Origin: Vulcanimicrobiota bacterium
GTDB lineage: Bacteria > Vulcanimicrobiota > Vulcanimicrobiia > Vulcanimicrobiales > Vulcanimicrobiaceae
Assembly (NCBI GenBank): GCA_963820825.1
Contig: CAWGBN010000006.1
Location: forward strand, 320,001-384,000
Direction of reading: 5' to 3'
DNA length: 64,000 bases
Shown here piece after piece: positions 780-52,400 of the stretch (positions are counted from its first letter, which is position 1; every line of letters begins with the position of its first letter). The notes beneath the pieces are model-generated. The model saw only the letters and a program-made list of their open reading frames with translations, was not told the origin of the DNA and did not search any database. The translations under genes were made by a program, and so were the position numbers.

Positions 780-1961
780 TTAGTAAACAAAGCCTGTGCG
801 GACGGCTGGGCGAGCGAACTTGAAGCCGTCGGCGTCGACGGTGTAGAGGTAGATGTTCGGAATCAGCGGATCGCCGCTGATGTTGAAGGCGAACTGACCG
901 ACGAGCGTCGTGAACGTGCCGCCCGTCTGCAGGGTGCGCAGCAGCGCCTGGCGGGAGGTCGCGTTCCCACGCTGCGACGCCGCGATGATTAGCTGCGCGG
1001 CGGCGTAACCGAAGGCGGATTGCGTCGTGATTTGGCTGACCTCGCGCTCGAAATCGGTGACGAGTTGGACGGCGGTCGGGACGCGATCGAGCGGCGGCAT
1101 CGGCGAGGCGACGTACCCCCCTTTGAGCGTCCTGGCGTAGGTCGAAATCGTCTCGGAATTATAGAATCCATCGGCGGCTCCGAACTCGCCGGTGTAGCCG
1201 AGTACGCGCATCGCGTCGGCAATCGGTCCAAGCTCGGCCGACTTTCCGGCAAGAAAAACGTACCCCGGCGAACGGTCGAGCACGGTCCGCGCGGCTTGCG
1301 CGGGATCGGTCTTTTCGAGCGGAAAGAGCAAGACTTGCGCCGGGTGGCGGTCGTTCTGCGCTTGCGTGACGAAGCCGCTCGCGACGTCGTAGCCGTAATC
1401 GCCGTCAAAGGCGACCGCGATCGCGCTCACCCCGCGTTTGCCCTCGAGTGCGACGGTAGCGAAGAGCCGTCCGGCCGCACTGTCGCGTGCGGGGAGGCGA
1501 TAGATATTGTGATAGCCGCGCTTCGTGACCGAGTCGGCGGTGACGGTCGGACAGATCACCGCAAAACCGACGTTCGCGTAGCGCGAAAGCGCGGCGAGCG
1601 TCATCGGCGCAGTGAGATTACCGACGACTCCGATGCAGTTGAAATCCGCGGCCGCGACGCTGGCGTTCGACGAGGCGACGCCGGGATCGTTGCGGTCGTC
1701 GTACGGGCGTATTCCCCAAGCGTTTGAGAGCAACGTGTTAAAGCGATTCTGCTCGTCGACGGCGGCCTGCACGCCTTTGACGACTTCCTGGCCGTACTTC
1801 TGCAGCGGGCCCGAGAGGGTGACGTTGACCGCGATGTTGATCTGCGGCAGATAGCGCTGTGTCTGGACGGGCGGACCCGGAGCGATCTGCGCGCGCGCCG
1901 GAAGCGCCACGCCGCCGGCGGCGGCCGCTGCGGCGGCCGTAATGAACCGGCGCCGTTTCAC
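780..1961 (-). CDS. LivK-like (branched-chain amino acid family) substrate-binding protein with Tat signal
   Basis: MKRRRFI Tat-type leader; LSGP...G, YDD, VVG, AFGYAAAQ and TLVGQFAF motifs of periplasmic binding protein type 1. Confidence 0.8.
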   Translation of the reverse strand: MKRRRFITAAAAAAAGGVALPARAQIAPGPPVQTQRYLPQINIAVNVTLSGPLQKYGQEVVKGVQAAVDEQNRFNTLLSNAWGIRPYDDRNDPGVASSNASVAAADFNCIGVVGNLTAPMTLAALSRYANVGFAVICPTVTADSVTKRGYHNIYRLPARDSAAGRLFATVALEGKRGVSAIAVAFDGDYGYDVASGFVTQAQNDRHPAQVLLFPLEKTDPAQAARTVLDRSPGYVFLAGKSAELGPIADAMRVLGYTGEFGAADGFYNSETISTYARTLKGGYVASPMPPLDRVPTAVQLVTDFEREVSQITTQSAFGYAAAQLIIAASQRGNATSRQALLRTLQTGGTFTTLVGQFAFNISGDPLIPNIYLYTVDADGFKFARPAVRTGFVY

Positions 1962-2806
1962 ACGTATCCGCCGACGGTCGTGATCAGGAAGAAGACCGAA
2001 AACGTCATGTTGGAGATAAAAATGCGCTCGTTGATTACGAAAAGATTGGCCCCGCTTCGGAAGAGATACTCTTCATAGATAATGAGAACCGCGACTGAGA
2101 GCACGCCGAGAAAGTACGGCCGTCCGGCTCCGGCGAGTACCCCCGCGGCTCCCAGGAGCAGGAGCATCGCGCCGTGGAGCACGATCGGTAGAATGCGCCC
2201 GCTCGCTTCGCCGAATCGCACGGGCAAGGAATAGATGCCTTGCGCGCGGTCGACGCCGAGATCCATCAACGCATAGATGATGTCGAATCCCGCGACCCAG
2301 ATCGTTACCGCGGCGAAGAGTAAGATCGCGGGCAGCGTGATCTTGCCCGCAACGCCGATATACGCGCCCAACGGCGCGAGACCGTCGACCGCGCCGAGCA
2401 CGAAGTGGGTCGCCCAAGTGAAGCGCTTGCAGAGCGGATAGATCAACACGAGCAGCGCCGCAATCGGCATGAGCTTCACGCAGAGCGGATTGAGCATCCA
2501 GGCCGAAACGAGCAGCAGCGCGAGGCCCGCAGCGCTCGCCCACAGCATCGTTGCGGGCGAGAGCGCGCCGCTGGCCAAGGCACGGCGAGCGGTTCGCGGA
2601 TTGCGCGCGTCGATCTCGCGGTCGAGAAAACGATTCGCCGCCATTGCCGCGGTCCGCGCGCCGAGAACGGCGAGGGTAATCCAAATCAGCGCGGCGAGCG
2701 AAGGAATGCCGCGGGCCGCCAAGATCGCGCCGACGTAGGCAAAGGGCAATGCGAAGAGCGTGTGCTCGATGCGTATTTCGCGCAGAAAGAGCGCGACGGT
2801 TCTCAC
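1958..2806 (-). CDS. UbiA-family prenyltransferase (MqnP-like)
   Basis: EHTLFALPF, NRFLDREIDARNPRT, YPLCKRFT, GFDIIYALMD; GTGA overlap with the upstream ubiD-family stop. Confidence 0.9.
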   Translation of the reverse strand: MRTVALFLREIRIEHTLFALPFAYVGAILAARGIPSLAALIWITLAVLGARTAAMAANRFLDREIDARNPRTARRALASGALSPATMLWASAAGLALLLVSAWMLNPLCVKLMPIAALLVLIYPLCKRFTWATHFVLGAVDGLAPLGAYIGVAGKITLPAILLFAAVTIWVAGFDIIYALMDLGVDRAQGIYSLPVRFGEASGRILPIVLHGAMLLLLGAAGVLAGAGRPYFLGVLSVAVLIIYEEYLFRSGANLFVINERIFISNMTFSVFFLITTVGGYV

Positions 2807-4335
2807 CGGAGCGACTCGTCGCGGGTGCGCACGAGCCGCTCGTACGATTGCGCGCCCTGACCGGACCAATCGTCGGGCTGTAACGCCTTCGTTATTGCAT
2901 CGAGACCGTAGGCCGTCCAACGTTCGCTTACCAGGCGGCGCGTTGCGTCGTCGGCGACCATCTCCGGCGGCCACCGGCGGGTGTAGCCCTCGGATGCATC
3001 CTTACGGGTCGCGTCGATGCCGATCTTCGTTCCGTATGCGACGCTGTAGGAGCCGTGGTCGAGATCGTCGACCGGTCCCGGCATCGTCACGACGTCGCGC
3101 TCGGGCGCTAAGTTGTTGAGAACGAACCACGCGACCGCACGCGGATCTTGGACGTCCACATCGGCATCGACCACGACCAGGACGCGCGTGAGCATCATCA
3201 TATGGCCGAGCCCCCAGAGGGCGTTCATCACTTTCTTGGCTTGGCCCGGATAGGACTTTCGAATCGAGACGATCGCGAGGTTGTGGAAGCCGCCTTCGAC
3301 GGGAAGATTCATGTCGACGACCTCGGGAAGCATCGCCTGCAGAATCGGAAGAAAGATTCGTTCGGTGGCCTTGCCCAGCCACGCGTCCTCCATCGGCGGT
3401 TTGCCGACGACCGTCGCCGCATACACCGGATTGCGGCGGTGCGTGATGCACGTGACGTGAAAGGTCGGATAGCGATCGGCCGGACTGTAGACGCCGGTAT
3501 GGTCGCCGAACGGACCTTCGACCCGAAGATCTTCGTTGTCGACGTAGCCTTCCAACACGAACTCGGCTTCGGCAGGTACGAGCAGATCGACGCTTTTGGC
3601 GCGCACGAGTTCGACGGGTTTGCCGCGCAGGAGACCGGCGAAGGCAAACTCGTCGAGCATCGGCGGAAGCGGTGCCGTTGCAGCATAGGTGAGCGCGGGT
3701 TCGGTCCCGATCGCGACCGCGACGGGAATCCGTGCGCCCGCGGCCTCGGCGTGCGCCCTGCCCTGTTTGTGACGCTGCCAGTGCATGCCCGTCTCCTGTG
3801 CGTTGAAGACCTGCATCCGGTACATGCCGACGTTGAACCGTCGGCTCTTGGGATCTTTGGTGATGACGAGCGGAAGCGTGATGAATGGACCGGCGTCGAG
3901 CGGCCAGGTCGTCAAGACGGGAAGTTTCGTAAGGTCGGCCGGCGCCATCACGACCTCTTGAACGCTTCCCTCGCGCAGGATCTTCGGAATTGCGTTGGCG
4001 AGCGGCGCGAGCCGCAGCGCACCTCGCAGCTTTCCGACGAACGATCCGCCCGGCGGCGCGATATCGACGAGCTTGCGTACGCGTGCGCCGACTTCGTCGA
4101 GCGTCGTCGCATCGAGGGCCATCGCCATCCGCCGGTGCGTCCCGAACTGATTCGTCAGCACCGGAAAGCTCGAGCCTTTCACGTTGGAGAAGAGCAGGGC
4201 CGGTCCCCCGGCTTTCACGACGCGGTCGGTGATCGCGCCGATCTCCAGCCGCGGATCGACGCTCGCGACGACGACGTGAAGCTCGCCGGCACGCCGCAAA
4301 GCGGCGACGAACTCACCCAAGGACGCAAAAGGCAT
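2803..4335 (-). CDS. UbiD-family decarboxylase (menaquinone biosynthesis type)
   Basis: EGPFGDHTG, NVGMYRMQ, GKPPMED, KIGIDAT motifs. Confidence 0.92.
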   Translation of the reverse strand: MPFASLGEFVAALRRAGELHVVVASVDPRLEIGAITDRVVKAGGPALLFSNVKGSSFPVLTNQFGTHRRMAMALDATTLDEVGARVRKLVDIAPPGGSFVGKLRGALRLAPLANAIPKILREGSVQEVVMAPADLTKLPVLTTWPLDAGPFITLPLVITKDPKSRRFNVGMYRMQVFNAQETGMHWQRHKQGRAHAEAAGARIPVAVAIGTEPALTYAATAPLPPMLDEFAFAGLLRGKPVELVRAKSVDLLVPAEAEFVLEGYVDNEDLRVEGPFGDHTGVYSPADRYPTFHVTCITHRRNPVYAATVVGKPPMEDAWLGKATERIFLPILQAMLPEVVDMNLPVEGGFHNLAIVSIRKSYPGQAKKVMNALWGLGHMMMLTRVLVVVDADVDVQDPRAVAWFVLNNLAPERDVVTMPGPVDDLDHGSYSVAYGTKIGIDATRKDASEGYTRRWPPEMVADDATRRLVSERWTAYGLDAITKALQPDDWSGQGAQSYERLVRTRDESLR

Positions 4336-4364: not shown

Positions 4365-5285
4365 TTACTCTTTGTGAGCGGGAATTGCCGCGACGAAGCG
4401 CGCGCCGCCCGACGGAGCCTCGGCGACCGAGACCGCGCCGTCGTGCGCGCGCGCGATCCAGCTCACGATTGCCAGCCCAAGACCCGTACCGTTGCCGTCG
4501 TCCGAGCGCCGGTAGAAGCGCTCGAAGATCCGCTGGCGCTCTTGCGTGGGAATGCCCTCGCCGTCGTCGTCGACGACGATCTCGCAGAGATCGCCGTTGC
4601 GGCGCGAGGCGATCGCGACGCTCCCGCGCGCGTGACGAATTGCGTTGTCGAGTAAATTCCGCGCGAGTTCGCGCAGGCGACGCTCGTCACCGTCGACGAT
4701 CGCGCTGGCCGGGGAGCTTTCGAGCCGTATGCCGCGCGCGGTCGCAATCGGCTGCGTCTCGCTCGACGAATCGGCGACGACGGCTCCAAGGTCCACCGGC
4801 TCGCACTGCAACGCGCGACGCGCGGGATCGCGCGCGAGCGTCAGCAAGTCGGTGACGACCGCCGATGCTTCGAACGCGCTGCGTGCGATCGCTTCGAAGG
4901 CGGCGCGCGTCTCCTCCGGCGGCCGCATGCGCGCGGCCTGCGCGAGCGCCGCAATCGCGGCCAGCGGGGAACGCAGCTCGTGGGCTGCATCCGCGGCGAA
5001 GATGCGTTCGCGCTCGCGGGCCGCTTCGATCGGTGCGATCGCCGTCCGGGCCAGTACGTACGAAGCGACGGCGACGATCGCGACGATCGGAAGATCGAGC
5101 GCAGCGAGCGTAAGGGCGACGCGTCGCATCGCCGCGCTCAGCGCCTGCGAGCCTTCGGGTGTGCCGAGAGCCGGACCGAGCAGCGAGGTATACTCGCGCG
5201 CCATGAACGCGTAGGCTCCGGCATTGAGCGCCAGGAGCACGCAGACGAAGACGGCGAGATAGAGTAACGCTACCCGAAGAATCAA
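4365..5285 (-). CDS. Sensor histidine kinase (two TM helices, very short extracytoplasmic loop)
   Basis: AAHELRSPL H-box, NLLDNAIRH N-box, DDGEGI, GTGLGL; TTG start overlaps the regulator stop (TTGA). Confidence 0.9.
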   Translation of the reverse strand: MILRVALLYLAVFVCVLLALNAGAYAFMAREYTSLLGPALGTPEGSQALSAAMRRVALTLAALDLPIVAIVAVASYVLARTAIAPIEAARERERIFAADAAHELRSPLAAIAALAQAARMRPPEETRAAFEAIARSAFEASAVVTDLLTLARDPARRALQCEPVDLGAVVADSSSETQPIATARGIRLESSPASAIVDGDERRLRELARNLLDNAIRHARGSVAIASRRNGDLCEIVVDDDGEGIPTQERQRIFERFYRRSDDGNGTGLGLAIVSWIARAHDGAVSVAEAPSGGARFVAAIPAHKE

Positions 5286-5953
5286 CCGGTCTTTAGGCGG
5301 TATCCGATACCCCATACCGTTTCGATGACACCGCTCGCTCCCAGCGCCTTGAGCTTTCGTCGAAGCTGGCTGACGTAGACGTCGACGATATTGCTGGAGC
5401 CCTCGAAATCGTAATCCCAAATGCGCTCGACGATTTGCGTGCGCGAGAGCGCGATTCCGGCGTTACGCGCGAGAAACTCCAAGAGGCGAAACTCGGTCGC
5501 GCCGAGCACGACCGGCCGCCCTTCGTATGCGACGGTGCGCGCGCCGAGATCGACGCGAAGTCCTCCGGCCTCGACCACGCCGAGCATCGGCCGGTCCCCG
5601 CGGCGCAGAATCGCTCCGATACGCGCGACCAGCTCCTCTTCGACGAACGGCTTGACGAGATAATCGTCGGCGCCGCATTCGAGACCCGCGACCCGATCTT
5701 CGACGGCGTCCCGAGCGGTGAGCATAAGGATGGGCGTCTGAACGCCCTCGGCGCGGGCACTGCGCGCCAGCGAGAAGCCGTCCATGCCGGGCAGTCCGAC
5801 GTCGATCACGGCTGCGTCGTAACACCGGCGCAGGAGGTGGTCGAGTCCGGAGGCGCCGTCGGTCACGACGTTCGCCGCATATTTGCGGGCTTCGAGCATC
5901 GTCCGGATCGACTCGGCGACCGGAACGTTATCTTCGACGACCAGAACTCTCAT
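5282..5953 (-). CDS. OmpR/PhoB-family response regulator
   Basis: VLVVED, IDVGLPGMDG, LTARD, GADDYLVKPF, ETVWGIGY. Confidence 0.95.
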   Translation of the reverse strand: MRVLVVEDNVPVAESIRTMLEARKYAANVVTDGASGLDHLLRRCYDAAVIDVGLPGMDGFSLARSARAEGVQTPILMLTARDAVEDRVAGLECGADDYLVKPFVEEELVARIGAILRRGDRPMLGVVEAGGLRVDLGARTVAYEGRPVVLGATEFRLLEFLARNAGIALSRTQIVERIWDYDFEGSSNIVDVYVSQLRRKLKALGASGVIETVWGIGYRLKTG

Positions 5954-5963
5954 ACGAATCGAC

Positions 5964-7094
5964 CTAGTTCTTCAACGGGCCCGGGAAAGCTACTGTCAGC
6001 GCGGCGCTAAAGTACGGGTGCTGGCCGGGCTGCTGCACCTCTTGGGCGAGCACCCGGAACGGCGCGATCTGCACCGCCGCGTAGTAGACGAAGTCGCGGT
6101 TGATGAACGGATTGGCGAAGGCGTCGTAGCGAAGGCCAAAGTATGCGTGCGGGATTGGATAGTACTTCAGCCGCACGTATCCGCCCGACGAGTGCTGATT
6201 GGTCAGGAAGCCGTCCGCGTCGTGATCGTCGCCGTACCATTGTTCGGCTTGGAGATCGAGGTTGCCGTAGCTGGCGTGCCCGAGCAGGCCGTACCGCTCG
6301 TAGAGGTCGGCGAACGGAAGGCGTCCGGTGGGAAGAACGCCGAGCGTTCCTCCGAGCGCGGTCGCGCCGAGATCGACTTCGGCGCTTCTTTTCTGGTAGA
6401 GCGTGTCGCGAAGCCAGATGCTCATCTCGGGACTCTTCATCCAGGTCGACTCACCGGTCGGCACCGGCTTGCCGCCGTAGGCGGAGCCGGCGTAGAAGCC
6501 CATGTCGACGACGCCGTCTACTCGGAAGTTTCCGAAAGTCCGTTCCGCCATCACGCCCCAGCGCGGCGACGAAAGCGGAAGGTTGTTTAGACCGACGTGC
6601 GCGCCGTAGTAGCCGTACTGCTCCAGATCGTCGAGTCGTTGTCCCGGCGACTGCGCGAGCGGAAGCTCGAAGAGCCCACCGCGGAAGAGCGTCTGCGTGT
6701 GCTCGTTGTATCCGGCAGCGAAGATCAGATAGGTCGCAGCCGGTCCTCCGCCCGATCCGAAATTATAGTGCAGGTAAGCGGTGATTGGGCCGATGTTGCC
6801 GCTGCCCAGCAGAATGCCTCCCTGAGAGTACCGCGGACTACCCGGCGCGGGCTGCTTATCGTATTCCAGTTGATACCGGATCGCAAAGATCGTCGTGCCG
6901 TGCTCGGGCAGCGGTAGACGATAACCGTGCGAACGGAAGTAGTTTCCAAACGCGTTGAGCTCCGGCAGCACGCTGTGGCACTGACCGCACTTAAAATGGT
7001 AGCGTTGGGCGAAAATCGGAATTGCCTGCGCCGGCGCGTTCGCCAGCGCGACGAAGAGCAGCGCAAAGCCTGCGGCAGCGAGCTTACTGCGCAA
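5964..7094 (-). CDS. Cyc2-like fused monoheme cytochrome c / outer-membrane beta-barrel protein
   Basis: Signal peptide ending AQA, then IPIFAQRYHFKCGQCHSVLPELNAFGNYFRSHGY (CxxCH at 6975-6989); the remainder is rich in amphipathic aromatic beta-strands; TTG start inferred. Confidence 0.72.
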   Translation of the reverse strand: MRSKLAAAGFALLFVALANAPAQAIPIFAQRYHFKCGQCHSVLPELNAFGNYFRSHGYRLPLPEHGTTIFAIRYQLEYDKQPAPGSPRYSQGGILLGSGNIGPITAYLHYNFGSGGGPAATYLIFAAGYNEHTQTLFRGGLFELPLAQSPGQRLDDLEQYGYYGAHVGLNNLPLSSPRWGVMAERTFGNFRVDGVVDMGFYAGSAYGGKPVPTGESTWMKSPEMSIWLRDTLYQKRSAEVDLGATALGGTLGVLPTGRLPFADLYERYGLLGHASYGNLDLQAEQWYGDDHDADGFLTNQHSSGGYVRLKYYPIPHAYFGLRYDAFANPFINRDFVYYAAVQIAPFRVLAQEVQQPGQHPYFSAALTVAFPGPLKN

Positions 7095-7536
7095 CGATCG
7101 CCGCTCGCATAGGCGCGCCGTAGTGGAAGAAGCAGCCGAAGAGATAGGTGCCCGGCCGATCGGCCGTGATCGTCTGTGAGGATGCGTTCGGCTGGAGCGC
7201 GCCGCTGCTGAACCCGCCGGAAAGGTTGCTGCCGTGCTGCTGCAACGCACCCGAATTAAACGGCGAGCCGCTCGGGAAGGTGCCGGCACCGGGAATCAGC
7301 GTCGCCGTGTGCGCGAACGTGTCGACGTTGACGAAATGAATTTGCGTACCTACCGAGACGGTGGTCACCGGCGGCGAGAAGCCTCCGCTCTGTCCGTACG
7401 GCGTCTGCGATGGCGCGAACTGGGTTAGGCTGACGTCGATGGTGACGCCGCCGCTTCCGCCGGACGACGACGGAATTCCGCCGGCCGTGCATGCCGCGAG
7501 CGCGAGTGCTGCGACCGCGGCAAAACGGCGTATCAT
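7084..7536 (-). CDS. Cupredoxin (type-1 copper) lipoprotein
   Basis: Lipobox LAAC; HT motif and GTYLFGCFFHYGAPM give the His/Cys/His/Met ligands; ATGA overlap. Confidence 0.85.
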   Translation of the reverse strand: MIRRFAAVAALALAACTAGGIPSSSGGSGGVTIDVSLTQFAPSQTPYGQSGGFSPPVTTVSVGTQIHFVNVDTFAHTATLIPGAGTFPSGSPFNSGALQQHGSNLSGGFSSGALQPNASSQTITADRPGTYLFGCFFHYGAPMRAAIVAQ

Positions 7537-8627
7537 TGCGACGCTACCCGATGCTGCTGGCGCACCGCGTCGAGGATCGCGTCGCCGAGTGCGCTCGATG
7601 CCAGCATCGTCTGCGCCAACGTGCCGTCGCCATTCATGACGTAAACGAAGGTCGTGTGCTCGTCGCGGTACCCGCGCTTCCCCTCGATGGAGAGAACGCC
7701 GAACTCGTGCATGACGGCCTCGACGTTGCGAACCGATCCGCCGGCGAGCAGCCAATACCGAGGATTGGCGTCGAAACGCGTTGCGAGCTCGCGCATCGTG
7801 CGCGGCGAGTCGTGCTCGGGATCGAGGGTGATGGTGAGCAATCGTGCGTGGAGATGCGCGTGCGCAATCCTGCGAGCGGCGTCGGCGAACTGGCCGTTGA
7901 TGAGCGGGCAGGCGTCGGTGCAGTGGGCCGATACGAAGGTGATGACGAGCGGCTCGCCGCGTAGTGAGGCGAGCGTAAACTCGCGACCGCGCTGATCGAC
8001 CAGATGCGTCCGCTGCGCCGGCTCCGGTGCTTTCGCTGTGGAACGCCGTTTGGCGTATCCGCCCGGTCCCGGCGACGCCGTCGGTCCGGGTGAAGCGCTC
8101 GCCGAGACCTCGATGATATCGCGCATGGCGTTTGAGACGTAGTGGACCGCACAGCCGATCAAATAAATTCCCGGCTTTGAAAGCGTGACGGTTACCGATG
8201 CGCCGGGATTGAGAAGTCCGCTCGCGTAGCCGCTTCCGAGGATGCCGTTTCCGGTCGGAGAGAATCCGAGACTGGGACTAACCGGCCACTGCGGCGGGGG
8301 TCCGTTCGTCTTCGCAATTACGTTGAGCGTATGAGAGTCGGCTTTTGAAAGATTCACGATCGTGAGCTTAGCGCCGGGGGCGAAGGCGAGAACTTGCGAG
8401 GTCTTCTCTTGCGTGAAGCCGCTCACCGTTCCCCAAACTGGATCGTTCTCGACGCCGATCTTTCCAGTCGGTATCCCCAGACCGATCGCCGACGCCGAGG
8501 GCAGCGGCGAAGGCGAACCGCCGCCTCCGCCGCCACCAATACTGCCCAAACCGCCGCCGTTCGTGCATGCCGTAACGGCCGCGATTGCAAGCGCGCCGAG
8601 CCAAAATGCCGGGCTGCGAAGGTTCAT
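7533..8627 (-). CDS. Cupredoxin-SCO1/SenC fusion lipoprotein
   Basis: Lipobox VTAC; HTLNV and GCAVHYVSNAM; then LVDQRG, CTDAC (CxxxC), ITLDPEHD and EHTTFVY SCO motifs. Confidence 0.82.
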   Translation of the reverse strand: MNLRSPAFWLGALAIAAVTACTNGGGLGSIGGGGGGGSPSPLPSASAIGLGIPTGKIGVENDPVWGTVSGFTQEKTSQVLAFAPGAKLTIVNLSKADSHTLNVIAKTNGPPPQWPVSPSLGFSPTGNGILGSGYASGLLNPGASVTVTLSKPGIYLIGCAVHYVSNAMRDIIEVSASASPGPTASPGPGGYAKRRSTAKAPEPAQRTHLVDQRGREFTLASLRGEPLVITFVSAHCTDACPLINGQFADAARRIAHAHLHARLLTITLDPEHDSPRTMRELATRFDANPRYWLLAGGSVRNVEAVMHEFGVLSIEGKRGYRDEHTTFVYVMNGDGTLAQTMLASSALGDAILDAVRQQHRVASQ

Positions 8628-9214
8628 TGAGGCGGTTTGGTCGCCTGCGGTCCGGGTGTCGCACCCGGCTCGACAACAATGACGTCTTGCATACCTGAGT
8701 GGTAGTGGAAGGCGCAGCCGAAGAGATAGATGCCGGCCTTCTTGGCAACCACGGTGACCGACGATCCCGGATTGATCGAGCCGCTTCTATAGCCGTTCTT
8801 CAGCGGCCCTCCCGATGGTGTCGTCGGGAGCGACGGACTGCTCGGGAAGTTCGCGGGCGGTCCTTTGATCTTCGCGACGACGTTGAACGTGTGGTGAATG
8901 CTCTTCGAAATGTTCTTGATCGTGAGCTTGGTGTTGGGCGGAAAGCCCAGTGCCTGCGAGAATTGTCGTTGCGTGAAACCGCCCAGCGTCGCTTGCCAGG
9001 TCGGATCTTTAATCGTGCCGAGGCCTTCCGCGGGAAGCTCCTCCATTACCGTACCCTTTTTTCTGTCGGGAAGGACGTAGCTGAGTTGCAAGTCGGGCAT
9101 GTTCGGCAGCGCGTACGTGCCGCTATTCGCACCGGTGCTGCCGGAGTTGCCCGCGCATGCTGCAAGTGCCGCGGCCGCAAGCGTCACCGCCATTGCCGCG
9201 AGTTTTTTAGCCAT
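8624..9214 (-). CDS. Cupredoxin (type-1 copper) lipoprotein
   Basis: Lipobox LAAC; HTFNV and GIYLFGCAFHYHSGM; GGAGG upstream; clear paralog of the adjacent cupredoxin domain. Confidence 0.85.
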   Translation of the reverse strand: MAKKLAAMAVTLAAAALAACAGNSGSTGANSGTYALPNMPDLQLSYVLPDRKKGTVMEELPAEGLGTIKDPTWQATLGGFTQRQFSQALGFPPNTKLTIKNISKSIHHTFNVVAKIKGPPANFPSSPSLPTTPSGGPLKNGYRSGSINPGSSVTVVAKKAGIYLFGCAFHYHSGMQDVIVVEPGATPGPQATKPPQ

Positions 9215-9280
9215 ATAACCTCCAGAGAGTGTAGGAATGTGCCTTAGGCTAGCGGTCGAGGATGAAGAAAGTCTAAAGCA

Positions 9281-10117
9281 CTACGGGGGTTTGATCGAGT
9301 CGCGCATCGCTGCCGCGATATTCTGCAGCGCCGGATCGCCCGCCGCATCGATCGTCGCTCGAGCGAACTCATTGCGGGCGGACGCGTGGTCCCCCTCTCG
9401 CAAGAGGACGACGCCCAGGGCAAACCGAGCGCGCGCATACGCGGGCGCGAGCGAGAGCGCGATGCGCAGTTCGCGTTCGGCCGCTTGATAGCGATCCAAG
9501 CGTTCTTCGGCGAGCGCGAGATCGTAATGCGCGACCGCGTACGACGGATTCGCGTGCAGCAGCTTGCCGAAATCCTCACGAGCGGTCGCGGCGTCGCCGC
9601 CTTGGAGCGCGACGATTCCCCGCGAATAGAGCGCTCGTGCCGCGTCCGGTGCGAGCGTGACGTATCGATTGGCCATGCGGCGCGCCTCGGCGAGATCGCC
9701 GCGCGCGAGGTCGATGGAGACGAGATTGGCCATCGCGGCTAGGAAGCCCGGATCGAGCGCGAGCGCGCTGCGCAGCTCGCGCGCCGCATCGTCGTAACGC
9801 TTTAGGTTCGCATACGCGATTGCGAGGTCGTACTGCGCCGTCGAGCCTTGCGGCTCGGCCGGATGGAGCGCGAGGATTCGCTCGAACTCAAGAGCCGCGT
9901 TCGTCCAGTCGCCGCGCGTCTCCGCGTCGATACCGAGCGTGAAGCGCTCTTCGATTTCGCGCCGAATCGCGAGCGCCTGCAACTGCGGTAGCGAAGTCGT
10001 TCTCGGTGCGGGACTCTGCGTTGAGTAGCTCTGCCCTTGGAGCGCCCCCAAGGCGGGCGCCACTCCGAACGTCGCCTCGACTTGGATAAGAAGGGCGGCG
10101 AGCAGCAGAACCCGCAT
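9281..10117 (-). CDS. Exported tetratricopeptide-repeat protein
   Basis: Signal peptide; repeated helical units such as AQYDLAIAY..ALALDP and AHYDLALA..ALSLAP. Confidence 0.85.
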   Translation of the reverse strand: MRVLLLAALLIQVEATFGVAPALGALQGQSYSTQSPAPRTTSLPQLQALAIRREIEERFTLGIDAETRGDWTNAALEFERILALHPAEPQGSTAQYDLAIAYANLKRYDDAARELRSALALDPGFLAAMANLVSIDLARGDLAEARRMANRYVTLAPDAARALYSRGIVALQGGDAATAREDFGKLLHANPSYAVAHYDLALAEERLDRYQAAERELRIALSLAPAYARARFALGVVLLREGDHASARNEFARATIDAAGDPALQNIAAAMRDSIKPP

Positions 10118-10120
10118 CGT

Positions 10121-10375
10121 TCACTGCGTGCCGTCGGAAGGCAGTTCGGCGTCGTGCCAAGAGCCGGCCGCGGCTGCGCGCTCGGGTTTGCACTCCCAAC
10201 CGACCCGCCCCGCGGCGGTAATCGGTCCGAGGAGTCCCGGCGCGGCCGACGGACTGAGCGCCCCGGAGAGCAGGTCTTCCACAGAGGCGGCGCTTGCTAC
10301 GGCAAAATGGCCGCAGAGAAACGCGCCGGCGAGAAGACCGGCTGCAAGCAGGCGCTGGAGATAGGTTCTTGACAC
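10121..10375 (-). CDS. Small exported hypothetical protein
   Basis: Signal-peptide-like N-terminus; 3 bp upstream of the TPR gene; purine-rich RBS. Confidence 0.5.
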   Translation of the reverse strand: MSRTYLQRLLAAGLLAGAFLCGHFAVASAASVEDLLSGALSPSAAPGLLGPITAAGRVGWECKPERAAAAGSWHDAELPSDGTQ

Positions 10376-10409
10376 TTCCTTCCATCATAGCCGAAAGTCT
10401 AAAGAATCC

Positions 10410-12248
10410 GTGAAGCTCGGGCTCGGCGCCGGGATGCTGCTCTCGATTCTGCTCGCGGCAGCGCCGGCGCGCGCCCAAACCCCGCTCGTCGTCGGGTCGG
10501 TGCGGGACCAGCACGGGGCGGCGGTCGATGGGGCCACCGTCGTGGCCCAGACGGCGGCGGGTGTCGGCCCGGCCGCGACGACCGATGCCGCCGGTACCTT
10601 CGCGCTCCATGGCTCGGGGATCGTCTCGGTCCGGATCGGTTGCCGCTACTGCCTCGGATCGGAGGTGGCGGTCAAGCCGGGCGAGCCGGTCGTCGCGATC
10701 GTCCGCCGCTACGACGCGCTGCTGAGCGAAGCACCCTCGCCGGCCGACCTGGCGAGCCTCCCCTACGCCCACGTAGAGTCCTCGGTCGCCCTCCATCCCT
10801 TCACGCTCCTCTCTCAAACGAGCACGCCCTATCCCGGCTCGCTGTTGAGCGATCGCGGTCTCTCGTCGAGCGGCGCGCTGCTCATCGACAACGGCGCCCC
10901 GAACTACGACATCGTCGCCGGCGAATCGCCGTACGCGCTCATCCCCGCGTATTACGAACAGGGCGCGGCGCTGCACGACGCGACGCTCGCGTACGCATAC
11001 GGCGATCAAGCGGCCGGCGGCGTCGTGATGCTCGATCCGTTCGTCGCCGGGTCGAGCGCGGAGGTCGCGACGATCGGCAGCGAGGCGATCGCTCGCGCGC
11101 AAGTCGGATCGGACGCATCGTCGATATCGGTCGGTACGTTCAGCAACGACGAGGAGTCGCGTCAGCGAGGCGACCTTACCGCGAGCTGGCCGTTGGGAGC
11201 GGACCAGTCGTTCACCGTCTCCGGAGGCAGCGAGCAAGGCCGCAACTACGAATCGCCGGCGTCCTCGTTTGCCGGCAGCTTCTCATTTGCCGATGCCGGC
11301 TTCAGCGATCCGCGCGCGCTCAACCTCTCGCTCTCCGCCGTGATGGATCGTGGCAGTTACGTCGCGAGCAGCTACCAATGGCCGACATCGACCGGCTGGT
11401 CCGATTCCGGTTTCGATGCGAGCATCCATACCAACGGACCCGTCGTCGCATTTGCCGACGCCGCGACTCGTTCGTCGAGCGGTTTCTACGACGCGCAATC
11501 GTTTGGGCTCGAGCGAGTCGGCGCGACGCTCGATCAGACGCGCATCGATGCGGGCCTCGTCGCGAGCGGAAGTGCGTACGCGGTGACGGCGGGAGTCGGC
11601 GCCTTCTGGTTCGACTATGCGGGTGGTACCTACGGCATATCGCAGCCGGCACGTGCGGCGCTCGCGGTACCGTCGCTCGATGCGAAGCTCTTTCCAAACG
11701 GCAAGTGGAGCTTGGACCTTCAAGGCAGCGGGTCGTTCACGCTGCCGACCTTCATCGAGCAGTATCTCTATGCCGAGGCCCGGCCGACGCCGGTGCAGCT
11801 CTCGCGCAACGCACTCCAAGCGGCAATTCTCAGCTATACCGACGGCGCGCGCGTGCGTTTCGAATTCGAAGCGGCCACCGAAAACGTGAGCGGCAGCGCG
11901 AGCGGAAGAATTTCGTCGGCCGGTCTTTCGGCGATATGGCAGATCGCGCCGGCGATTTCGCTGCGGACGTGGACGATGCACGTCACCGACTCCGCGCCGC
12001 TCTACGGCGCGGTTCTTCCCTACGGACCCGCGCCGACGGTGAACGCGATTTGGTTGACCTACGACACGGGGAGCGCGATTCGCGCCGACGTGCTATACCG
12101 CCGCGATCTGCTCGATGCGCTTCCGTTCTATCACTTCGACGGTGCGATCTCCGGTCCGATCGGCGATCGCTTGCGATGGTACGCCGGCGCCGAGGACCGG
12201 ATGCGCCGCACGTTCCTCGACGCCGGCCTTCGTTTCTCCGCGCGCTAG
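10410..12248 (+). CDS. Outer-membrane protein with carboxypeptidase-regulatory-like N-domain (TonB-dependent receptor-like)
   Basis: Signal peptide; GSVRDQHGAAVDGATV and TTDAAGTF; plug-like RGLSS, LLIDNG and YGDQAAGGV; beta-rich C-terminus ending GLRFSAR. Confidence 0.65.
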   Translation: MKLGLGAGMLLSILLAAAPARAQTPLVVGSVRDQHGAAVDGATVVAQTAAGVGPAATTDAAGTFALHGSGIVSVRIGCRYCLGSEVAVKPGEPVVAIVRRYDALLSEAPSPADLASLPYAHVESSVALHPFTLLSQTSTPYPGSLLSDRGLSSSGALLIDNGAPNYDIVAGESPYALIPAYYEQGAALHDATLAYAYGDQAAGGVVMLDPFVAGSSAEVATIGSEAIARAQVGSDASSISVGTFSNDEESRQRGDLTASWPLGADQSFTVSGGSEQGRNYESPASSFAGSFSFADAGFSDPRALNLSLSAVMDRGSYVASSYQWPTSTGWSDSGFDASIHTNGPVVAFADAATRSSSGFYDAQSFGLERVGATLDQTRIDAGLVASGSAYAVTAGVGAFWFDYAGGTYGISQPARAALAVPSLDAKLFPNGKWSLDLQGSGSFTLPTFIEQYLYAEARPTPVQLSRNALQAAILSYTDGARVRFEFEAATENVSGSASGRISSAGLSAIWQIAPAISLRTWTMHVTDSAPLYGAVLPYGPAPTVNAIWLTYDTGSAIRADVLYRRDLLDALPFYHFDGAISGPIGDRLRWYAGAEDRMRRTFLDAGLRFSAR

Positions 12249-46951: not shown

Positions 46952-48436
46952 TCACGGTTTGTAGCCGGCGACTTGCGCTTCGGTAACGGCCGGGGCTTTG
47001 TTATTGCCCAGCGATCCGCGAATGTACGTGATGACGTCGGCGATCTGCTTGTTGGTCAGCGTGCCCTTCCAGGCCGGCATCTGACCGTTATACGTCGAGC
47101 CGCCGACCGAGATCGAGCCGTGCAAGCCGCTGAGCAGGATGCCGATGACCTTGTTCGGATCGCCCGTTACGACCGGATTGTTCGCAAGCGGCGGGAACGT
47201 GCCGGGAACGCCCTGTCCCTGCGCGCCGTGACAGCTCGAACAGTTCTGCGAAAAGACGGGTGCACCCGGACTGCTCGCTGCGGAAGTAGTAGTGCTCGAG
47301 ACGGTCGCCGCCTCGGCCGGCGCGGCGGCGAGCACGACCGACTCCGGCGGCGAGGCGGGTGCGGCGGCTTGTTTGGCCATCGTCGTGAGCTGTCCGAACG
47401 TTGTCAGCGCCACGATGCCGGCGATGACCAACGCCGCGATCCACAGGAGCCCGGCGCGGCCGGAGAAGCTACGGCTCTTGCTGCGATCGAGCCACGGCAG
47501 CAAGAGAATCACCACCAAGAAGACCGTCGGCCCGATGATCGTCGCGATCAACTCCGTTCCGATCACCAACGGCCCGAGATGGATCTCCGGCGGCACCAGC
47601 GCGAGCAGACCGAAGAGCGATAAGAAATACCAGGCCGGATACGGCACGAAAAACTTCGTCGGATTGGCCTTCTCGTCGAGATACGGCGGCGCGACGAACG
47701 AGAGGAAGCAGATGATGATGAAGACGATGAGCGAGAACGCACCGTCCATGAAGAACTGATCCGGCCAAAAGCGTCCGGGTTTGAGCGTGCGCGGATCTTC
47801 CACGACCGGACCGGCCGAGCCGTTGTGGCGGAAGATCGCCAAATGCGCGCCGACGAGTGCGACCAGGACCGCGGGCATCAACCAGACGTGCAGGCCGAAG
47901 AAGCGGTTGATCGTAGCCGTGCCCATGCTGCCGCCGCCCTGGGCGATGTGCTGCATCACCGGTCCGGCGATCGGCGCCAAACCGACGATGTTCAGCGAGA
48001 CTTGGGATGCAAAGTACGCATCCATATCCCACGGCAAGAGATACCCGGTGAGTCCGAGGACGAGCGTGACGAGCAGCAAGAGCACGCCGACGACCCACTG
48101 CAGCTCGCGCGGCGCCTTATACGCGCCGAAGATCAGCACTTGCAACAGATGCAGGAAGACGAGGGCGATCATCGCCGAGGAGCCCCAGTAATGCACCGAG
48201 ATGAGGAAGTGCGTGTAGGGGTTGAGATAGATCGCGCGGGTCGATTCCCACGCCGTCGCTGCCGAGGGCGCGTAGAAGAACGTCAGGAAGATGCCGGTGA
48301 CGATCTGCACGATCATCGCGAAGAGGGTCGCGCTGCCGAAGACGTACCAGTAGCTCGCTCCCCCCGGCACGTCTTCCGTGAGGAACTCCTGCGTCATCGA
48401 GATGAAGCCGGTTCGTTTTTCGATCCAATTCAACAT
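46952..48436 (-). CDS. Cytochrome b fused to subunit IV-like region and C-terminal cytochrome c
   Basis: Four heme-b His residues, TGYLLPWD, RFFGLH, PAWY, CSSCH and MPAW. Confidence 0.92.
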   Translation of the reverse strand: MLNWIEKRTGFISMTQEFLTEDVPGGASYWYVFGSATLFAMIVQIVTGIFLTFFYAPSAATAWESTRAIYLNPYTHFLISVHYWGSSAMIALVFLHLLQVLIFGAYKAPRELQWVVGVLLLLVTLVLGLTGYLLPWDMDAYFASQVSLNIVGLAPIAGPVMQHIAQGGGSMGTATINRFFGLHVWLMPAVLVALVGAHLAIFRHNGSAGPVVEDPRTLKPGRFWPDQFFMDGAFSLIVFIIICFLSFVAPPYLDEKANPTKFFVPYPAWYFLSLFGLLALVPPEIHLGPLVIGTELIATIIGPTVFLVVILLLPWLDRSKSRSFSGRAGLLWIAALVIAGIVALTTFGQLTTMAKQAAAPASPPESVVLAAAPAEAATVSSTTTSAASSPGAPVFSQNCSSCHGAQGQGVPGTFPPLANNPVVTGDPNKVIGILLSGLHGSISVGGSTYNGQMPAWKGTLTNKQIADVITYIRGSLGNNKAPAVTEAQVAGYKP

Positions 48437-48446
48437 CAGCTCTTAC

Positions 48447-49130
48447 CTATGCCTGATACGAGACGACGATGCGCGAGGGCGTGTTCGATTGGTAGACGAT
48501 CCACATAACGTCCGCTTTGCCGCTCTGTCCGCGCAGCGGCAGCGGATCGAGTCCGCGTGGAGCCGGCCCCGCGACGTGCGTTCCGTCGAAGGTATACTGC
48601 GAGCCGTGACAGGGGCACATGAATCGGTTCTGCGCATCGCTCCAGCTGTAGTAGCAGCCTAGATGCGGGCAGATCGGGCTAAAGATGACGAAGTTCATGT
48701 TCACGACGTCGTATGGAACGTCGGGCTTGCCGCCCGGCAGCGTGAAGAGGTCGGGTCGCGCGGCTACGAACTTCGCATTGTTGTCGACGCGAATGCCCCA
48801 GCAGTACTCCTCCGCCGATTGCTCGGGGAGGTATCCGTCGACGAACTTGAGGGTGAACGTCATCTTGACCGGCTTCGCGGTCGCCTTCTGCAGCGCGTCG
48901 AGTTCTTGCGCGTCGAGCGGCGACCAGCTTCCCGTCGAGGAGCTCTTGGGCGGGAGGAGTGAGCCGACGATCGGGATGGCAAGGCTGAGGCCGACGATGC
49001 CGCCGATTGCCAGCGTGGCATTCGCCATGAAGGTGCGGCGCGTGATTTCGTCCTCGGTCTGCGGAAGGTCGTGCGCGCTCACTATTTTACGAGCGGCGCC
49101 TTGCGAAGCGTCGCCATGCGATTCGGACAA
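48447..49130 (-). CDS. Rieske iron-sulfur subunit of the Rieske/cytochrome b complex
   Basis: TRRTF Tat motif and TM helix; CPHLGC and CPCHGSQY; GPAPRGL. Confidence 0.93.
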   Translation of the reverse strand: MSESHGDASQGAARKIVSAHDLPQTEDEITRRTFMANATLAIGGIVGLSLAIPIVGSLLPPKSSSTGSWSPLDAQELDALQKATAKPVKMTFTLKFVDGYLPEQSAEEYCWGIRVDNNAKFVAARPDLFTLPGGKPDVPYDVVNMNFVIFSPICPHLGCYYSWSDAQNRFMCPCHGSQYTFDGTHVAGPAPRGLDPLPLRGQSGKADVMWIVYQSNTPSRIVVSYQA

Positions 49131-49287
49131 GATCGTTCTCCCAGGAAGCGTAGGCTACGGGTCGCAGCCTCATTTGCGGTTATTGTAAGCCCGCCCCTTC
49201 CCGTCGGCCAGGACGAAACTCGGATGCGACCCCGCCGGCGCGGCCCGGCTTCGCAGGCCGTCGGGCGAGCGGCGGCGCGCACCGGTA

Positions 49288-50283
49288 TCACATCTTGTAG
49301 CTGTGCAGGCCCGAGATCCAGATATTGACGCCCAAGTAGCAGAAGATAATCGAGAGAAAGCCGATCACGCTTACCCAACTCGTGCGCAGCCCGCGCCACG
49401 AATGACGCGTGTGCAGGTGCATGTAGGCAAGGTAGATGATCCACGAAAAGAGCGCCGCCGTCTCCTTTGGATCCCACTGCCAGTAGGCGCCCCAGGCCTC
49501 TTTCGCCCACATCGCGCCGGTAATGATGCCCACCGAGATCAGCGGGAGCCCAATCGCCACGGCCCGGTAGGTGATGACGTCGAGCTGTGCGAGGGTGGGC
49601 AGTGAGAGGAGCCAGCGAGCGACGGGATTCCCCGTCGCGGCGGCTGCAGCCATTGCGGGCGTATCGCGTGCGATGCCTCGTCCAAAATCGATGCCGGCGG
49701 CATCGGCGGCCGCGCTCATCGCGTCGAAGATGCGCTCTCCGGCCAGAATCGTCGAGCCGGCCTCAGCCGAGGCCGCTGCCAGCACGCGCTTTCCGCTAAA
49801 GCTCTGCTCCGCGTAGTACTTCAGCAAATAGAGGCACGAAAAGACGAACGAGACGAGAAAAGCCGCGTACGAAGAGACGACGATCGGCACGTGGATCTTC
49901 GCCCAATAGGATTGCAGCGAGGGTACCGGCGGCATCGTTCCTTCGTACCAAGTGACGCCGTATGCCAAGAATATCGCGGCGAGCGCGAGCACGAATCCGC
50001 CGGCAAACCAGATGCGGTAGCGGAAGGCGAAGCCGACATAGATCGCAACCGACATCGCGGCAAAGAGCGAGAGCGAGCCGTAGAGGTTGAGCAGCGGCCA
50101 AACGTGCGTGATCTCCCACCGCGCGATGAGTTGTGCGAACTGCGCGGCACATCCGAGGATGGCTAGCGCCGCGCCGAGATTACGCGCCCAGACATCGCGC
50201 GAGAAAAAGTAGAGCAAGAGCGCCAGGGCACCCACGACATAGGCTCCCAGAGCTACGGCAATCAGCAGTTCGTCGAGCGGCAT
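49288..50283 (-). CDS. ccsA: System II cytochrome c biogenesis protein CcsA/ResC
   Basis: LQSYWAKIHV, GAMWAKEAWGAYWQWDPKET (WWD domain), GLHSY. Confidence 0.93.
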   Translation of the reverse strand: MPLDELLIAVALGAYVVGALALLLYFFSRDVWARNLGAALAILGCAAQFAQLIARWEITHVWPLLNLYGSLSLFAAMSVAIYVGFAFRYRIWFAGGFVLALAAIFLAYGVTWYEGTMPPVPSLQSYWAKIHVPIVVSSYAAFLVSFVFSCLYLLKYYAEQSFSGKRVLAAASAEAGSTILAGERIFDAMSAAADAAGIDFGRGIARDTPAMAAAAATGNPVARWLLSLPTLAQLDVITYRAVAIGLPLISVGIITGAMWAKEAWGAYWQWDPKETAALFSWIIYLAYMHLHTRHSWRGLRTSWVSVIGFLSIIFCYLGVNIWISGLHSYKM

Positions 50284-50298
50284 TTCTTCGCTACCTCG

Positions 50299-51663
50299 TT
50301 AGGCCAGGCTTGGGCCGGGCTCGGTCCTTCGGCCTAACGCTAGCACAAGCCGCTCGAACTCGTTGGCGAAAACGTCATATCCCTTTACCGTCGTTGCCGC
50401 CGCACCGACCCGCGAGCGGCCGGGCGCGACCTCGTCTACCCGCACGTACAGACGAGCCGGCAGAAAGTAAAACGAGATCATCAGTCCCGCCAGCAGAACG
50501 AAGGCGCCGATTCCCACCAGCGGAACGCCGGGATCGTAGCGGTATTGGAAGCCGCTGTAGAGCACGTACCGCTTCGGAGTGACCCGCCAGCCGCCGCCCG
50601 GATCGATCGACGAGCCGAGCGGAACGAGCGCCTCGCCGAGTGAGTTCCCGCTATCCGACGCGCCGAGCAAGACGGCGGGATCGTTAACGCGCGGATCGGC
50701 CGTCGGCATTCCGCTTTGCTTATCGACGGTGGGAGCGAATCGTTCGTAAACGAGGGTACGCTGCGTTCCCGGAAGATCGAACGATTCGCCTTCGAGCAGG
50801 GTGCGGCTCGAAAGCTCGGCGTTGCGCTCGCCCTGCCGCGTGACGAGGAACTGCATTCCGAATCCGTAGCTGGCTTGGTAGTAGAGCGTGCCGTCGATGT
50901 CGATCGGGTGATTCACGCGAACGGTCAAATGCTTGGGAATGCCGTCTCTTCCGATCACCGTGACGTGCGAGACGTAATCGACGGGTTGATAGACCATCCC
51001 GCTCTTGGTCATGATCGGCGCGATCGTATAGGCGAAATCGTCGAGGTGAATCAACGCGTGGGTCTGCGGAATCTGCGCCGTGTGTCCGGTCAACAGCGCG
51101 GTCCCACCCGAGAAGCCACGCGCCCAGTACAGCGTCGTGCCGGCGGCGATGATGACGAAACCGGCGTGCGCGACGAGAACGCCGCGCCGCGCCCAGTTGT
51201 GTTTGTCGGCGAAGCTCCACTCCACGCCGCCGAAGATGCGCTCGCGCATCTGCCAGCCGCGCGCCGCAAGCGACTCCGATAAGCGCCGCCGCACGTCGGC
51301 GGCGTCGCCGTCGGTTTCGAAGACCGCGTGCAGCGGGATCTTCTCGACGCTGACCGGGCGCAACGGCGGTAGTCGGGCGGGAATGACGCGCTTGAACGTG
51401 CAGACCGCAAGCGATAGTAAGATCAACCCGACGATCCCAACGTACCACGGCGAGTGATAGATGTTATCGAAGTTGAGCCGAAGGATCGCTCGGGCGATCG
51501 GTGCCGCGTAGCTCTGGAAGTAAAGACTCGGATCCGCCCCCTGTTCGACGACGACGCCGACGAGCGTCAGCAGGCCCCAAACGACGAAGAGCGAGACGGC
51601 AAAGAGCACGTTACCGAACGTGCGCACGAACTCTGCGTATAGCGCGCGAACGGCGAGCGTCAC
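50299..51663 (-). CDS. resB: System II cytochrome c biogenesis protein ResB/CcsB
   Basis: IYHSPWY, LAVCT, AHAG, VNHP, YQAS, DPG; GTGA overlap with tatC. Confidence 0.9.
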   Translation of the reverse strand: MTLAVRALYAEFVRTFGNVLFAVSLFVVWGLLTLVGVVVEQGADPSLYFQSYAAPIARAILRLNFDNIYHSPWYVGIVGLILLSLAVCTFKRVIPARLPPLRPVSVEKIPLHAVFETDGDAADVRRRLSESLAARGWQMRERIFGGVEWSFADKHNWARRGVLVAHAGFVIIAAGTTLYWARGFSGGTALLTGHTAQIPQTHALIHLDDFAYTIAPIMTKSGMVYQPVDYVSHVTVIGRDGIPKHLTVRVNHPIDIDGTLYYQASYGFGMQFLVTRQGERNAELSSRTLLEGESFDLPGTQRTLVYERFAPTVDKQSGMPTADPRVNDPAVLLGASDSGNSLGEALVPLGSSIDPGGGWRVTPKRYVLYSGFQYRYDPGVPLVGIGAFVLLAGLMISFYFLPARLYVRVDEVAPGRSRVGAAATTVKGYDVFANEFERLVLALGRRTEPGPSLA

Positions 51664-52376: not shown

Positions 52377-52400
52377 CTCCTTTTGATCCCATTGCGCGTC

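Follow-up and report, generated by a model that had tools for sequence, protein, structure and literature searches.

A divergent Cyc2-like cytochrome-porin, its blue-copper partner and their predicted regulon in a class of soil bacteria

The open reading frame discussed here encodes a real, divergent Cyc2-like cytochrome-porin. Taken alone such a homolog is ordinary, and it is less surprising because Cyc2-like genes have already been published in Eremiobacterota, for MAG 15 (PMC8357290) and for Baltobacteraceae (PMC13594681), with the same tentative reading as Fe(II) oxidation. In our opinion it is the company of the gene that deserves attention. In most sampled genomes of one soil class it occurs together with a gene for a predicted blue-copper lipoprotein, and in the window (the whole stretch of 64,000 nucleotides that was analysed) the pair lies in an operon which the adjacent response regulator, judging from sequence, likely switches on through a conserved direct-repeat box. 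The preliminary description had noted neither this partner nor SCO, the two-component pair or the box.

The two papers just cited, in their accessible text, leave the paralog clades unseparated and mention neither the cupredoxin partner nor the operon nor the box; the two Cyc2-like sequences of MAG 15 sit on a long branch in the tree of PMC8357290, and no cluster labels were found in the supplement of PMC13594681. A literature search on Cyc2, FeGenie or cupredoxins in Eremiobacterota/WPS-2, with subscription papers mostly outside its scope, returned no title or abstract start describing a cupredoxin partner or a box.

The heme motif and the predicted barrel

The frame runs from 7094 to 5964 on the minus strand and starts with TTG (Table 1). 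All peptides quoted in the preliminary description are present in its 376-aa translation. By inspection, the leader is hydrophobic, 24 residues long and ends in A-Q-A; it is followed by IPIFAQRY, then CxxCH, then PxL. The preliminary description had counted the Ala of AIPIF to the mature N-terminus, whereas this Ala is most likely the -1 residue of the A-Q-A signal-peptidase site; because the AxA rule places it there, the mature chain would begin at Ile25 and have 352 residues. The Cyc2 signature that had been claimed around the heme site stands as far as CxxCH and PxL are concerned, but the upstream element agrees in part: five of the seven defined positions of AXPXFAR[Q/K][T/Y] match, with FAQRY in place of FAR[QK][TY], Q and R being swapped. 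That motif is a consensus and not a strict rule (Keffer et al., 10.1101/228056). Within the clade P, F, A, R and Y of the upstream motif are invariant in 55 of 55 orthologs, and CxxCH is invariant in all 128 aligned homologs, of which the distant rows had been chosen for having it.

Table 1. Features on the analysed stretch (positions within the window)
Feature	Position	Strand	Basis and remarks
Cyc2-like monoheme cytochrome-porin gene	5964..7094	-	ORF, homologs, predicted fold; 376 aa
Predicted Sec signal peptide	7023..7094	-	sequence; residues 1-24, ends A-Q-A; cleavage site inferred
Single CxxCH heme c motif	6975..6989	-	residues 36-40; invariant in aligned homologs
PxL after CxxCH	6957-6965	-	residues 44-46, four residues on from CxxCH
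Predicted 16-strand OprP-like beta-barrel	5982..6887	-	AlphaFold2 and fold search
CupA, predicted blue-copper (type 1) lipoprotein	7084..7536	-	Pfam Copper-bind, AF2, fold match; ligands H76, C135, H138, M143
CupB, type 1 cupredoxin lipoprotein fused to SCO1/SenC copper chaperone (CxxxC + His)	7533..8627	-	domain matches, motifs
CupC, third type 1 cupredoxin lipoprotein	8624..9214	-	His + C-x2-H-x4-M motifs; weak Pfam Copper-bind
OmpR-family response regulator	5282..5953	-	domain match; 10 nt past cyc2-like stop
Histidine kinase, two predicted membrane helices, ~25-aa loop	4365..5285	-	domain matches
Secreted TPR protein	9281..10117	-	domain match; stays with regulator-kinase pair where copper/heme block is missing
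Conserved direct-repeat box, 11-bp period, predicted response-regulator site, upstream of cupC	9261..9278	-	conservation, weight matrix
-10-like hexamer TAnnnT, 9 nt downstream of box	9246..9251	-	sequence, fixed spacing
Second, weaker box (8.7 bits), TATGAT-type -10, upstream of possible secreted 84-aa ORF and TPR gene	10398..10415	-	kept in most related loci

The protein has 630 homologs. The 120 best are 61-92% identical to it, and those named among them are Ca. Cybelea and other Eremiobacterota (the host itself belongs to Eremiobacterota and is Ca. Cybelea-like); one CxxCH is present in 114 of these 120, the remaining six start downstream of the motif, and none has two. In the genome the heme motif occurs three times in 4.17 million six-frame residues, and since it is absent from 10 shuffles and backed by the 630 homologs, it is not a product of chance. 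With 376 residues the protein is above the 365-aa minimum of Keffer et al. (10.1101/228056). The sole match in Pfam/NCBIfam is Porin_O_P (E 0.093); a PDB sequence search gave no significant match, and a plasmid collection yielded two weak N-terminal matches and nothing else.

Structure prediction, which had been proposed as a check, returns a barrel and not a non-barrel. The AlphaFold2 model, built on the 128-row alignment, has a pLDDT of 91.9, three short N-terminal helices and 16 strands, which fall between mature residues 46 and 347, so that the porin part, earlier described as alternating strands, is supported by the model. With the predicted barrel as query Foldseek returned porins only, and the top match in VIA-align was OprP (Z 23.2, rmsd 3.3, 286 aligned). 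Heme motif, PxL, length and a predicted barrel with OprP as top fold match agree with the initial reading as a divergent, short Cyc2 homolog.

By strand alternation, the residues conserved at the level of at least 90% that would line the predicted lumen are seven Arg and one Lys, against six acidic residues. The idea of an OprP-type arginine ladder as a special feature of this protein is weakened, as R243 and R298 are common to 31 and 33 of 34 distant Cyc2-like proteins; compared with the same 34, R129, R284 and H292 look clade-specific. As to the second axial heme ligand, there is no conserved Met among the 27 sequences compared, and the candidates are His41, His85 and His292 (mature numbering), kept in 26, 23 and 26 of the 27.

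The operon, its distribution and its box

On one strand, with overlaps or short gaps, follow the genes for TPR, cupC, cupB-SCO, cupA, cyc2-like, response regulator and kinase, and then ubiD- and ubiA-family genes (CupA, CupB and CupC are labels coined in this analysis). The cupA gene overlaps the start of the cyc2-like gene by 11 nt. CupA scores 24.2 bits against Pfam Copper-bind (cut-off 21.2), and its AF2 model (pLDDT 97.9) has a cupredoxin fold with Z 10-12, the matches to plastocyanin, pseudoazurin and amicyanin lying at Z 10-11 and that to rusticyanin at Z 7.5. The His, Cys, His, Met ligand set is present together with this fold, although its conservation is partly circular, since the rows were picked by that motif; the sequence has no His/Met-rich extension. 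CupC remains below the Copper-bind cut-off (E 0.1). All three Cup proteins have a lipoprotein-like Cys leader and a His and C-x2-H-x4/5-M set. CupB and SCO form one open frame in 64 of 102 loci and are separate in 26, and in 12 the SCO motif was not found. For the two-component pair, the best NCBIfam models are RppA and heavy-metal response regulators on one side and RppB/heavy-metal kinases on the other, both below cut-off (185.5 vs 279.2 and 134.3 vs 292.55). The outside loop of the kinase in the window has no His, Met or Cys, and the loops of its homologs have at most scattered His/Met. Neither cyc1 nor coxBACD is in the operon.

Several neighbours of the operon can be noted. A possible secreted ORF of 84 aa (10121-10375) lies between the second box and the TPR gene. 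The ubiD-/ubiA-family genes (1958-4335) abut the kinase and may be co-transcribed, a link kept in most close loci and lost in many distant ones. Divergent from the operon, at 10410-12248, stands a gene for a 612-aa secreted protein with an N-terminal carboxypeptidase-regulatory-like domain and no family match in the rest; it is conserved with TPR, regulator and kinase, and looks like an outer-membrane receptor.

The cupA gene adjoins the cyc2-like gene in 75 of 75 close loci, nearly all of them from Eremiobacterota/Vulcanimicrobiota, and likewise in all 27 of the distant ortholog loci examined, whose identity goes as low as 35%, but in none of 11 paralog loci. The 27 were chosen from 227 strong matches to span genera, families and orders, and the frameshifted cupA of locus L123 was counted as adjacent. 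The regulator is present in 73 and the kinase in 71 of the 75 close loci, several of which stop at contig ends. In six ortholog loci (L075, L139, L140, L142-L144) the porin-CupA pair has no adjacent regulator or kinase.

Some match to the Cyc2-like protein was found in 305 of 401 phylum genomes, all in three families of one class. At ortholog level (E below 1e-40; own genome left out of the 331 class genomes) the gene is in 227 of the 331, and CupA profile matches are in 230. Both are found in 222 genomes, the porin only in 5, CupA only in 8 and neither in 96; outside the own genus (252 genomes) the corresponding numbers are 144, 5, 8 and 95. In these counts kin genomes are not independent. 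The tallies, including those of RuBisCO, HiPIP genes and P1B ATPases given below, cover genomes marked unpublished (G128, G233, G238, G246, G248, G263, G328, G344, G359), without which both genes are in 215 of 322. In a quick-method tree of 83 rows, midpoint-rooted and holding no characterised Cyc2 members, the orthologs form one clade (SH-aLRT 98), with two other Eremiobacterota paralog groups apart. Within the clade family f3 branches off, then f2, then f1, an order consistent with vertical descent.

The own genome has two more Cyc2-like paralogs, one frameshifted and the other beside a YceI-like gene. The second (L076, G000:C2:246700-249000) is followed by a multi-domain cytochrome c, and the several frameshifts in these two genes may reflect either assembly error or decay. 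In other genomes the second paralog clade adjoins a COX2/cupredoxin-type gene, accompanied either by oxidase subunits or by a triheme cytochrome; at L148, L150 and L151 that gene is joined by genes for both subunits I and II of an oxidase, for a triheme cytochrome and for a further regulator-kinase pair, which is, as gene order suggests, a more direct Cyc2-to-oxidase arrangement than that of the window. The third clade (L077, L147) is followed by a YceI-like gene, a family assigned by scanning a relative. As for respiration of the host, Rieske and cytochrome b-c fusion genes stand at 46952-52392 in the window beside a pair for cytochrome c maturation of the CcsA/ResB type, with heme biosynthesis-like genes just upstream. 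One member of the pair is an assembly gene for cytochrome c (PF01578), and its neighbour is ResB-like by inspection. The genome has two COX1-family heme-copper oxidases, one with a cytochrome-c-fused subunit II and one ba3-like by inspection.

One 12-mer stands, letter for letter, at two places in the window, ahead of cupC and ahead of the TPR gene, and at no other place in the genome. After the TPR gene the box is present in 83 of 90 loci (42 distinct sites), with the consensus TTYAVACTTTYTTCAT and half-sites 11 bp apart; at L130, where gene order is rearranged, it stands directly before cupA. A weight matrix gives 14 genome matches of at least 16 bits, against 3, 1 and 3 in shuffles. The TAnnnT hexamer lies outside the matrix and has a background of 0.36% per position, but it occurs exactly 9 nt downstream in 9 of the 14 matches (one being the training site itself), against 0 of 33 weaker matches. 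We take this geometry of box and -10 to fit an activator of the OmpR/PhoB type. Among the distant loci, a box of at least 11 bits accompanies an adjacent regulator-kinase pair in 21 of 22 cases (18 partly in the training set) and is found in none of the six loci without the pair. As a control, five genomes with the module have 13 box sites, while five without it have three, all in the two that keep a full-length kinase ortholog, the three without kinase having none. In these two genomes (genus g27) the copper/heme block is missing between TPR and regulator and the TPR-regulator-kinase unit persists; of the three sites, two lead into a gene that is not among the usual targets. Box presence thus tracks the kinase and regulator pair, and therefore the porin-CupA pair appears to be regulated cargo.

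Besides the cupC operon, the box matches in the genome precede two further cupC paralogs and the genes for a Tat-exported HiPIP, three NHL/propeller-like lipoproteins of about 375 aa, a Lipoprotein_15 protein and a 140-aa secreted protein; in total, five type 1 copper lipoproteins and SCO are behind the box. Several other matches have no clear target gene. In other genera the box precedes the same gene families. The three lipoproteins (L156, L157, L159) are paralogous, belong to no named family, and each has its own box. One site, at G000:C7:14338, combines a strong box (29.7 bits) and a good -10 with no clear ORF, and may serve a small RNA or peptide. The literature search on COG4315 gave no relevant result. 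The HiPIP paralog has the box in the own genome and in 12 of 19 scorable, likely second-copy loci (20 were hand-picked) from three genera; each of these 12 also shows the -10, at an unchanged distance. That HiPIPs as a whole belong to the regulon was rejected: none of the 30 best-scoring HiPIP loci is boxed, and the box is limited to one paralog group. HiPIP genes occur in 124 of 151 genomes of family f1, often as two paralog groups, one of them boxed.

Direction of electron flow and the likely donor

Our tentative preference, to which we would give slightly less than an even chance, is an inward conduit that would lead from the heme via blue copper to an oxidase. The heme porin in the outer membrane would accept electrons outside the cell from a small donor in reduced form, for which Fe(II) is the most likely candidate, and would pass them to CupA, the blue-copper lipoprotein of the overlapping upstream gene. 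From CupA they would reach a heme-copper oxidase, possibly via other cupredoxins or the co-regulated HiPIP, with SCO loading copper into the partner proteins and the adjacent regulator turning the gene set on via its box. A mostly heterotrophic soil bacterium would thereby gain extra respiratory energy. The gene, its motifs, synteny, co-occurrence and the conservation of the box are observed, and the folds of porin and CupA are predicted; we infer that the two bind heme and copper and touch each other, that electrons flow inward from such a donor, and that the regulator binds the box.

The inward conduit is favoured because its components (a heme in the outer membrane, a tethered blue-copper protein, a HiPIP, and terminal oxidases encoded elsewhere) mirror the classes of carriers in iron oxidation by A. 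ferrooxidans, where Cyc2 delivers to the blue-copper protein rusticyanin, then Cyc1 and the aa3 oxidase, with the HiPIP Iro as an alternative carrier (PMC13741234). Cyc2 architecture, the OprP fold match, synteny and co-occurrence with cupA, the boxed HiPIP, cytochrome c maturation and the two oxidases speak for it, as does the second paralog clade with its neighbouring COX2/cupredoxin-type gene and oxidase subunits or triheme cytochrome. Oxidation of Fe(II) is established for characterised Cyc2 proteins from each of the three clusters (10.1101/228056, PMC13741234, PMC13692758), OprP is the template reported for Cyc2PV-1 (10.1101/228056), and Baltobacteraceae, predicted iron oxidisers, make up to 89% of some mine-tailings samples (PMC13594681).

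Several observations, however, count against the inward conduit. There is no tie to autotrophy: RuBisCO is in 45 of 401 phylum genomes; within the genus 3 of 79 genomes have it and 78 have the Cyc2-like gene, it was not found in the own genome (85% complete), and the ortholog is in 21 of 45 RuBisCO-positive against 206 of 286 RuBisCO-negative genomes (kin, again, not being independent). The operon is without cyc1 or oxidase genes, and a near-core, vertically inherited presence would be unexpected for a niche iron trait. With eight conserved basic residues (two of the Arg being general to Cyc2-like proteins) against six acidic ones, the predicted lumen is unlike the acidic cavity described for Cyc2TAG1 (PMC13692758). 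The box resembles CopR sites, and the best-scoring HiPIP loci lack it. The isolate paper, in its accessible text, names iron in a reference only (PMC9758169). Indeed, the early caution that distant Cyc2 homologs are unproven Fe oxidases was right, and Keffer et al. (10.1101/228056) describe the function of such divergent homologs as uncertain and as an open question.

The resemblance to CopR sites leads to a copper-response system of the envelope, in which a CopRS-like pair would turn on cupredoxins and SCO as copper binders. Toxic Cu(I) would be oxidised to Cu(II) by the heme porin together with CupA, its electrons ending up in respiration; the Cyc2 fold would then act as cuprous oxidase or copper buffer and not for energy. 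We consider this, the main rival, possible but rather unlikely. Read on the other strand the box is TGAAGA-n5-TRAAG, with core and 11-bp period as in the C. glutamicum CopR site TGAAGATTTnnTGAAGATTT (PMC3140484), and the half-site TTCAT is common to the box and the Synechocystis CopR site; in the latter, however, the spacing is N4-5 (PMC4182526). The copper lipoproteins and SCO behind the box are suggestive, and CopI offers a precedent of a copper-induced plastocyanin-like protein (PMC7558416). In another genus a CHRD/Cu-Zn-SOD-like secreted protein (weak matches) stands behind a site with one mismatch, and a heavy-metal P1B ATPase was found in none of the 19 genus genomes searched, compared with 70 of 150 genomes of the family sample. 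The best NCBIfam models of the pair also point to heavy metals, but all scores are below cut-off. Boxes of OmpR-family regulators frequently resemble one another, an efflux gene was seen behind none of the boxes, the genome's multicopper oxidase is unboxed, and CupA is without a His/Met-rich extension. Further, the kinase loop lacks His, Met and Cys, whereas C. glutamicum CopS has three His and two Met (PMC3140484).

Electrons could also flow outward, leaving the periplasm for Fe(III) or Cu(II) chelates on the cell surface and freeing the metal for uptake under limitation; in our opinion this is improbable. It would agree with the near-core distribution in heterotrophs, with a large gene for a predicted outer-membrane protein that diverges from the operon in 67 of the 75 loci, and with an Arg-lined OprP-like predicted lumen, which would suit anionic chelates. 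But type 1 copper and HiPIP centres, usually high-potential acceptors, are poor donors to Fe(III), and neither the operon nor the genes behind the box showed a quinol-linked reductase or a metal permease. HiPIP potentials range from +0.05 to +0.5 V (PMC10654088). The potential of one Cyc2 is as low as -130 mV (PMC13692758), which would favour outward flow, and SCO proteins, described as mattering most at low copper, would suit it too. Least of all do we believe in a redox sensor, in which heme porin and CupA report the outside redox state to a kinase itself almost without sensor domain. The short loop of about 25 aa and the position of regulator and kinase after the Cyc2-like gene in nearly all close loci would suit it; however, the two g27 genomes lack the entire copper/heme block and retain box sites and the TPR-regulator-kinase unit, which weakens the porin as obligate sensor of the kinase, and the six loci cited above have the porin-CupA pair without an adjacent regulator or kinase.

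Irrespective of these mechanisms, one may ask whether Cu(I) or another reductant, and not Fe(II) for lithotrophy, is the substrate of a Cyc2 lineage that is passed on vertically throughout the class and works with its own blue-copper lipoprotein, inside a two-component regulon of cupredoxins, SCO and HiPIP in soil heterotrophs. We think this somewhat unlikely, but if true it would be the first non-iron function for the Cyc2 family, and cyc2 could no longer be trusted to indicate iron oxidation in soils. The matter is of general interest: among the genomic markers of microbial Fe(II) oxidation Cyc2 is the principal one, and here a clade occurs in 227 of 331 sampled genomes of one soil class, mostly without RuBisCO. 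Either iron oxidation for side energy is far commoner in soil heterotrophs than assumed, or Cyc2 homologs differ in role, and surveys based on the marker count too many iron oxidisers. With the class-wide blue-copper partner and the predicted regulon the role of distant Cyc2 homologs becomes directly testable; the fixed partner protein and the promoter box are two direct handles, on electron transfer between two proteins and on the inducing signal.

Relation to known systems

With CopRS of C. glutamicum and Synechocystis and with CopI-type cupredoxins the system shares an OmpR-family pair in the regulated operon, a similar direct-repeat core and copper-protein targets. It differs in a kinase loop without metal ligands, in the absence of an ATPase, RND pump or multicopper oxidase behind the box, and in the inclusion of a heme porin and HiPIP. 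Like the Acidithiobacillus rus operon (cyc2-cyc1-cup-coxBACD-rus) together with Iro, it combines an outer-membrane heme porin, blue-copper carriers and a copper-oxidase assembly factor, here with HiPIP under shared control; unlike the rus operon it has no cyc1/cox genes and has its own two-component pair. CupA is a plastocyanin/pseudoazurin-like lipoprotein by its fold scores (rusticyanin scoring lower), and the HiPIP scores 44.9 against an Iro cut-off of 100.

The closest relatives are the Cyc2 proteins themselves, namely A. ferrooxidans Cyc2, Mariprofundus Cyc2PV-1, Ghiorsea Cyc2TAG1_1 and Leptospirillum Cyt572, with which the protein shares a signal peptide, a single N-terminal CxxCH, upstream AxPxFA, PxL and a predicted 16-strand OprP/OprO-like barrel; these motifs, 16 strands and likeness to OprO/OprP are what Keffer et al. 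(10.1101/228056) define as Cyc2. It departs from them in length (376 aa against 485 aa in A. ferrooxidans Cyc2), in FAQRY for FAR[QK][TY], in the many conserved Arg of the predicted lumen, and in a host mostly without RuBisCO, in which iron oxidation is putative.
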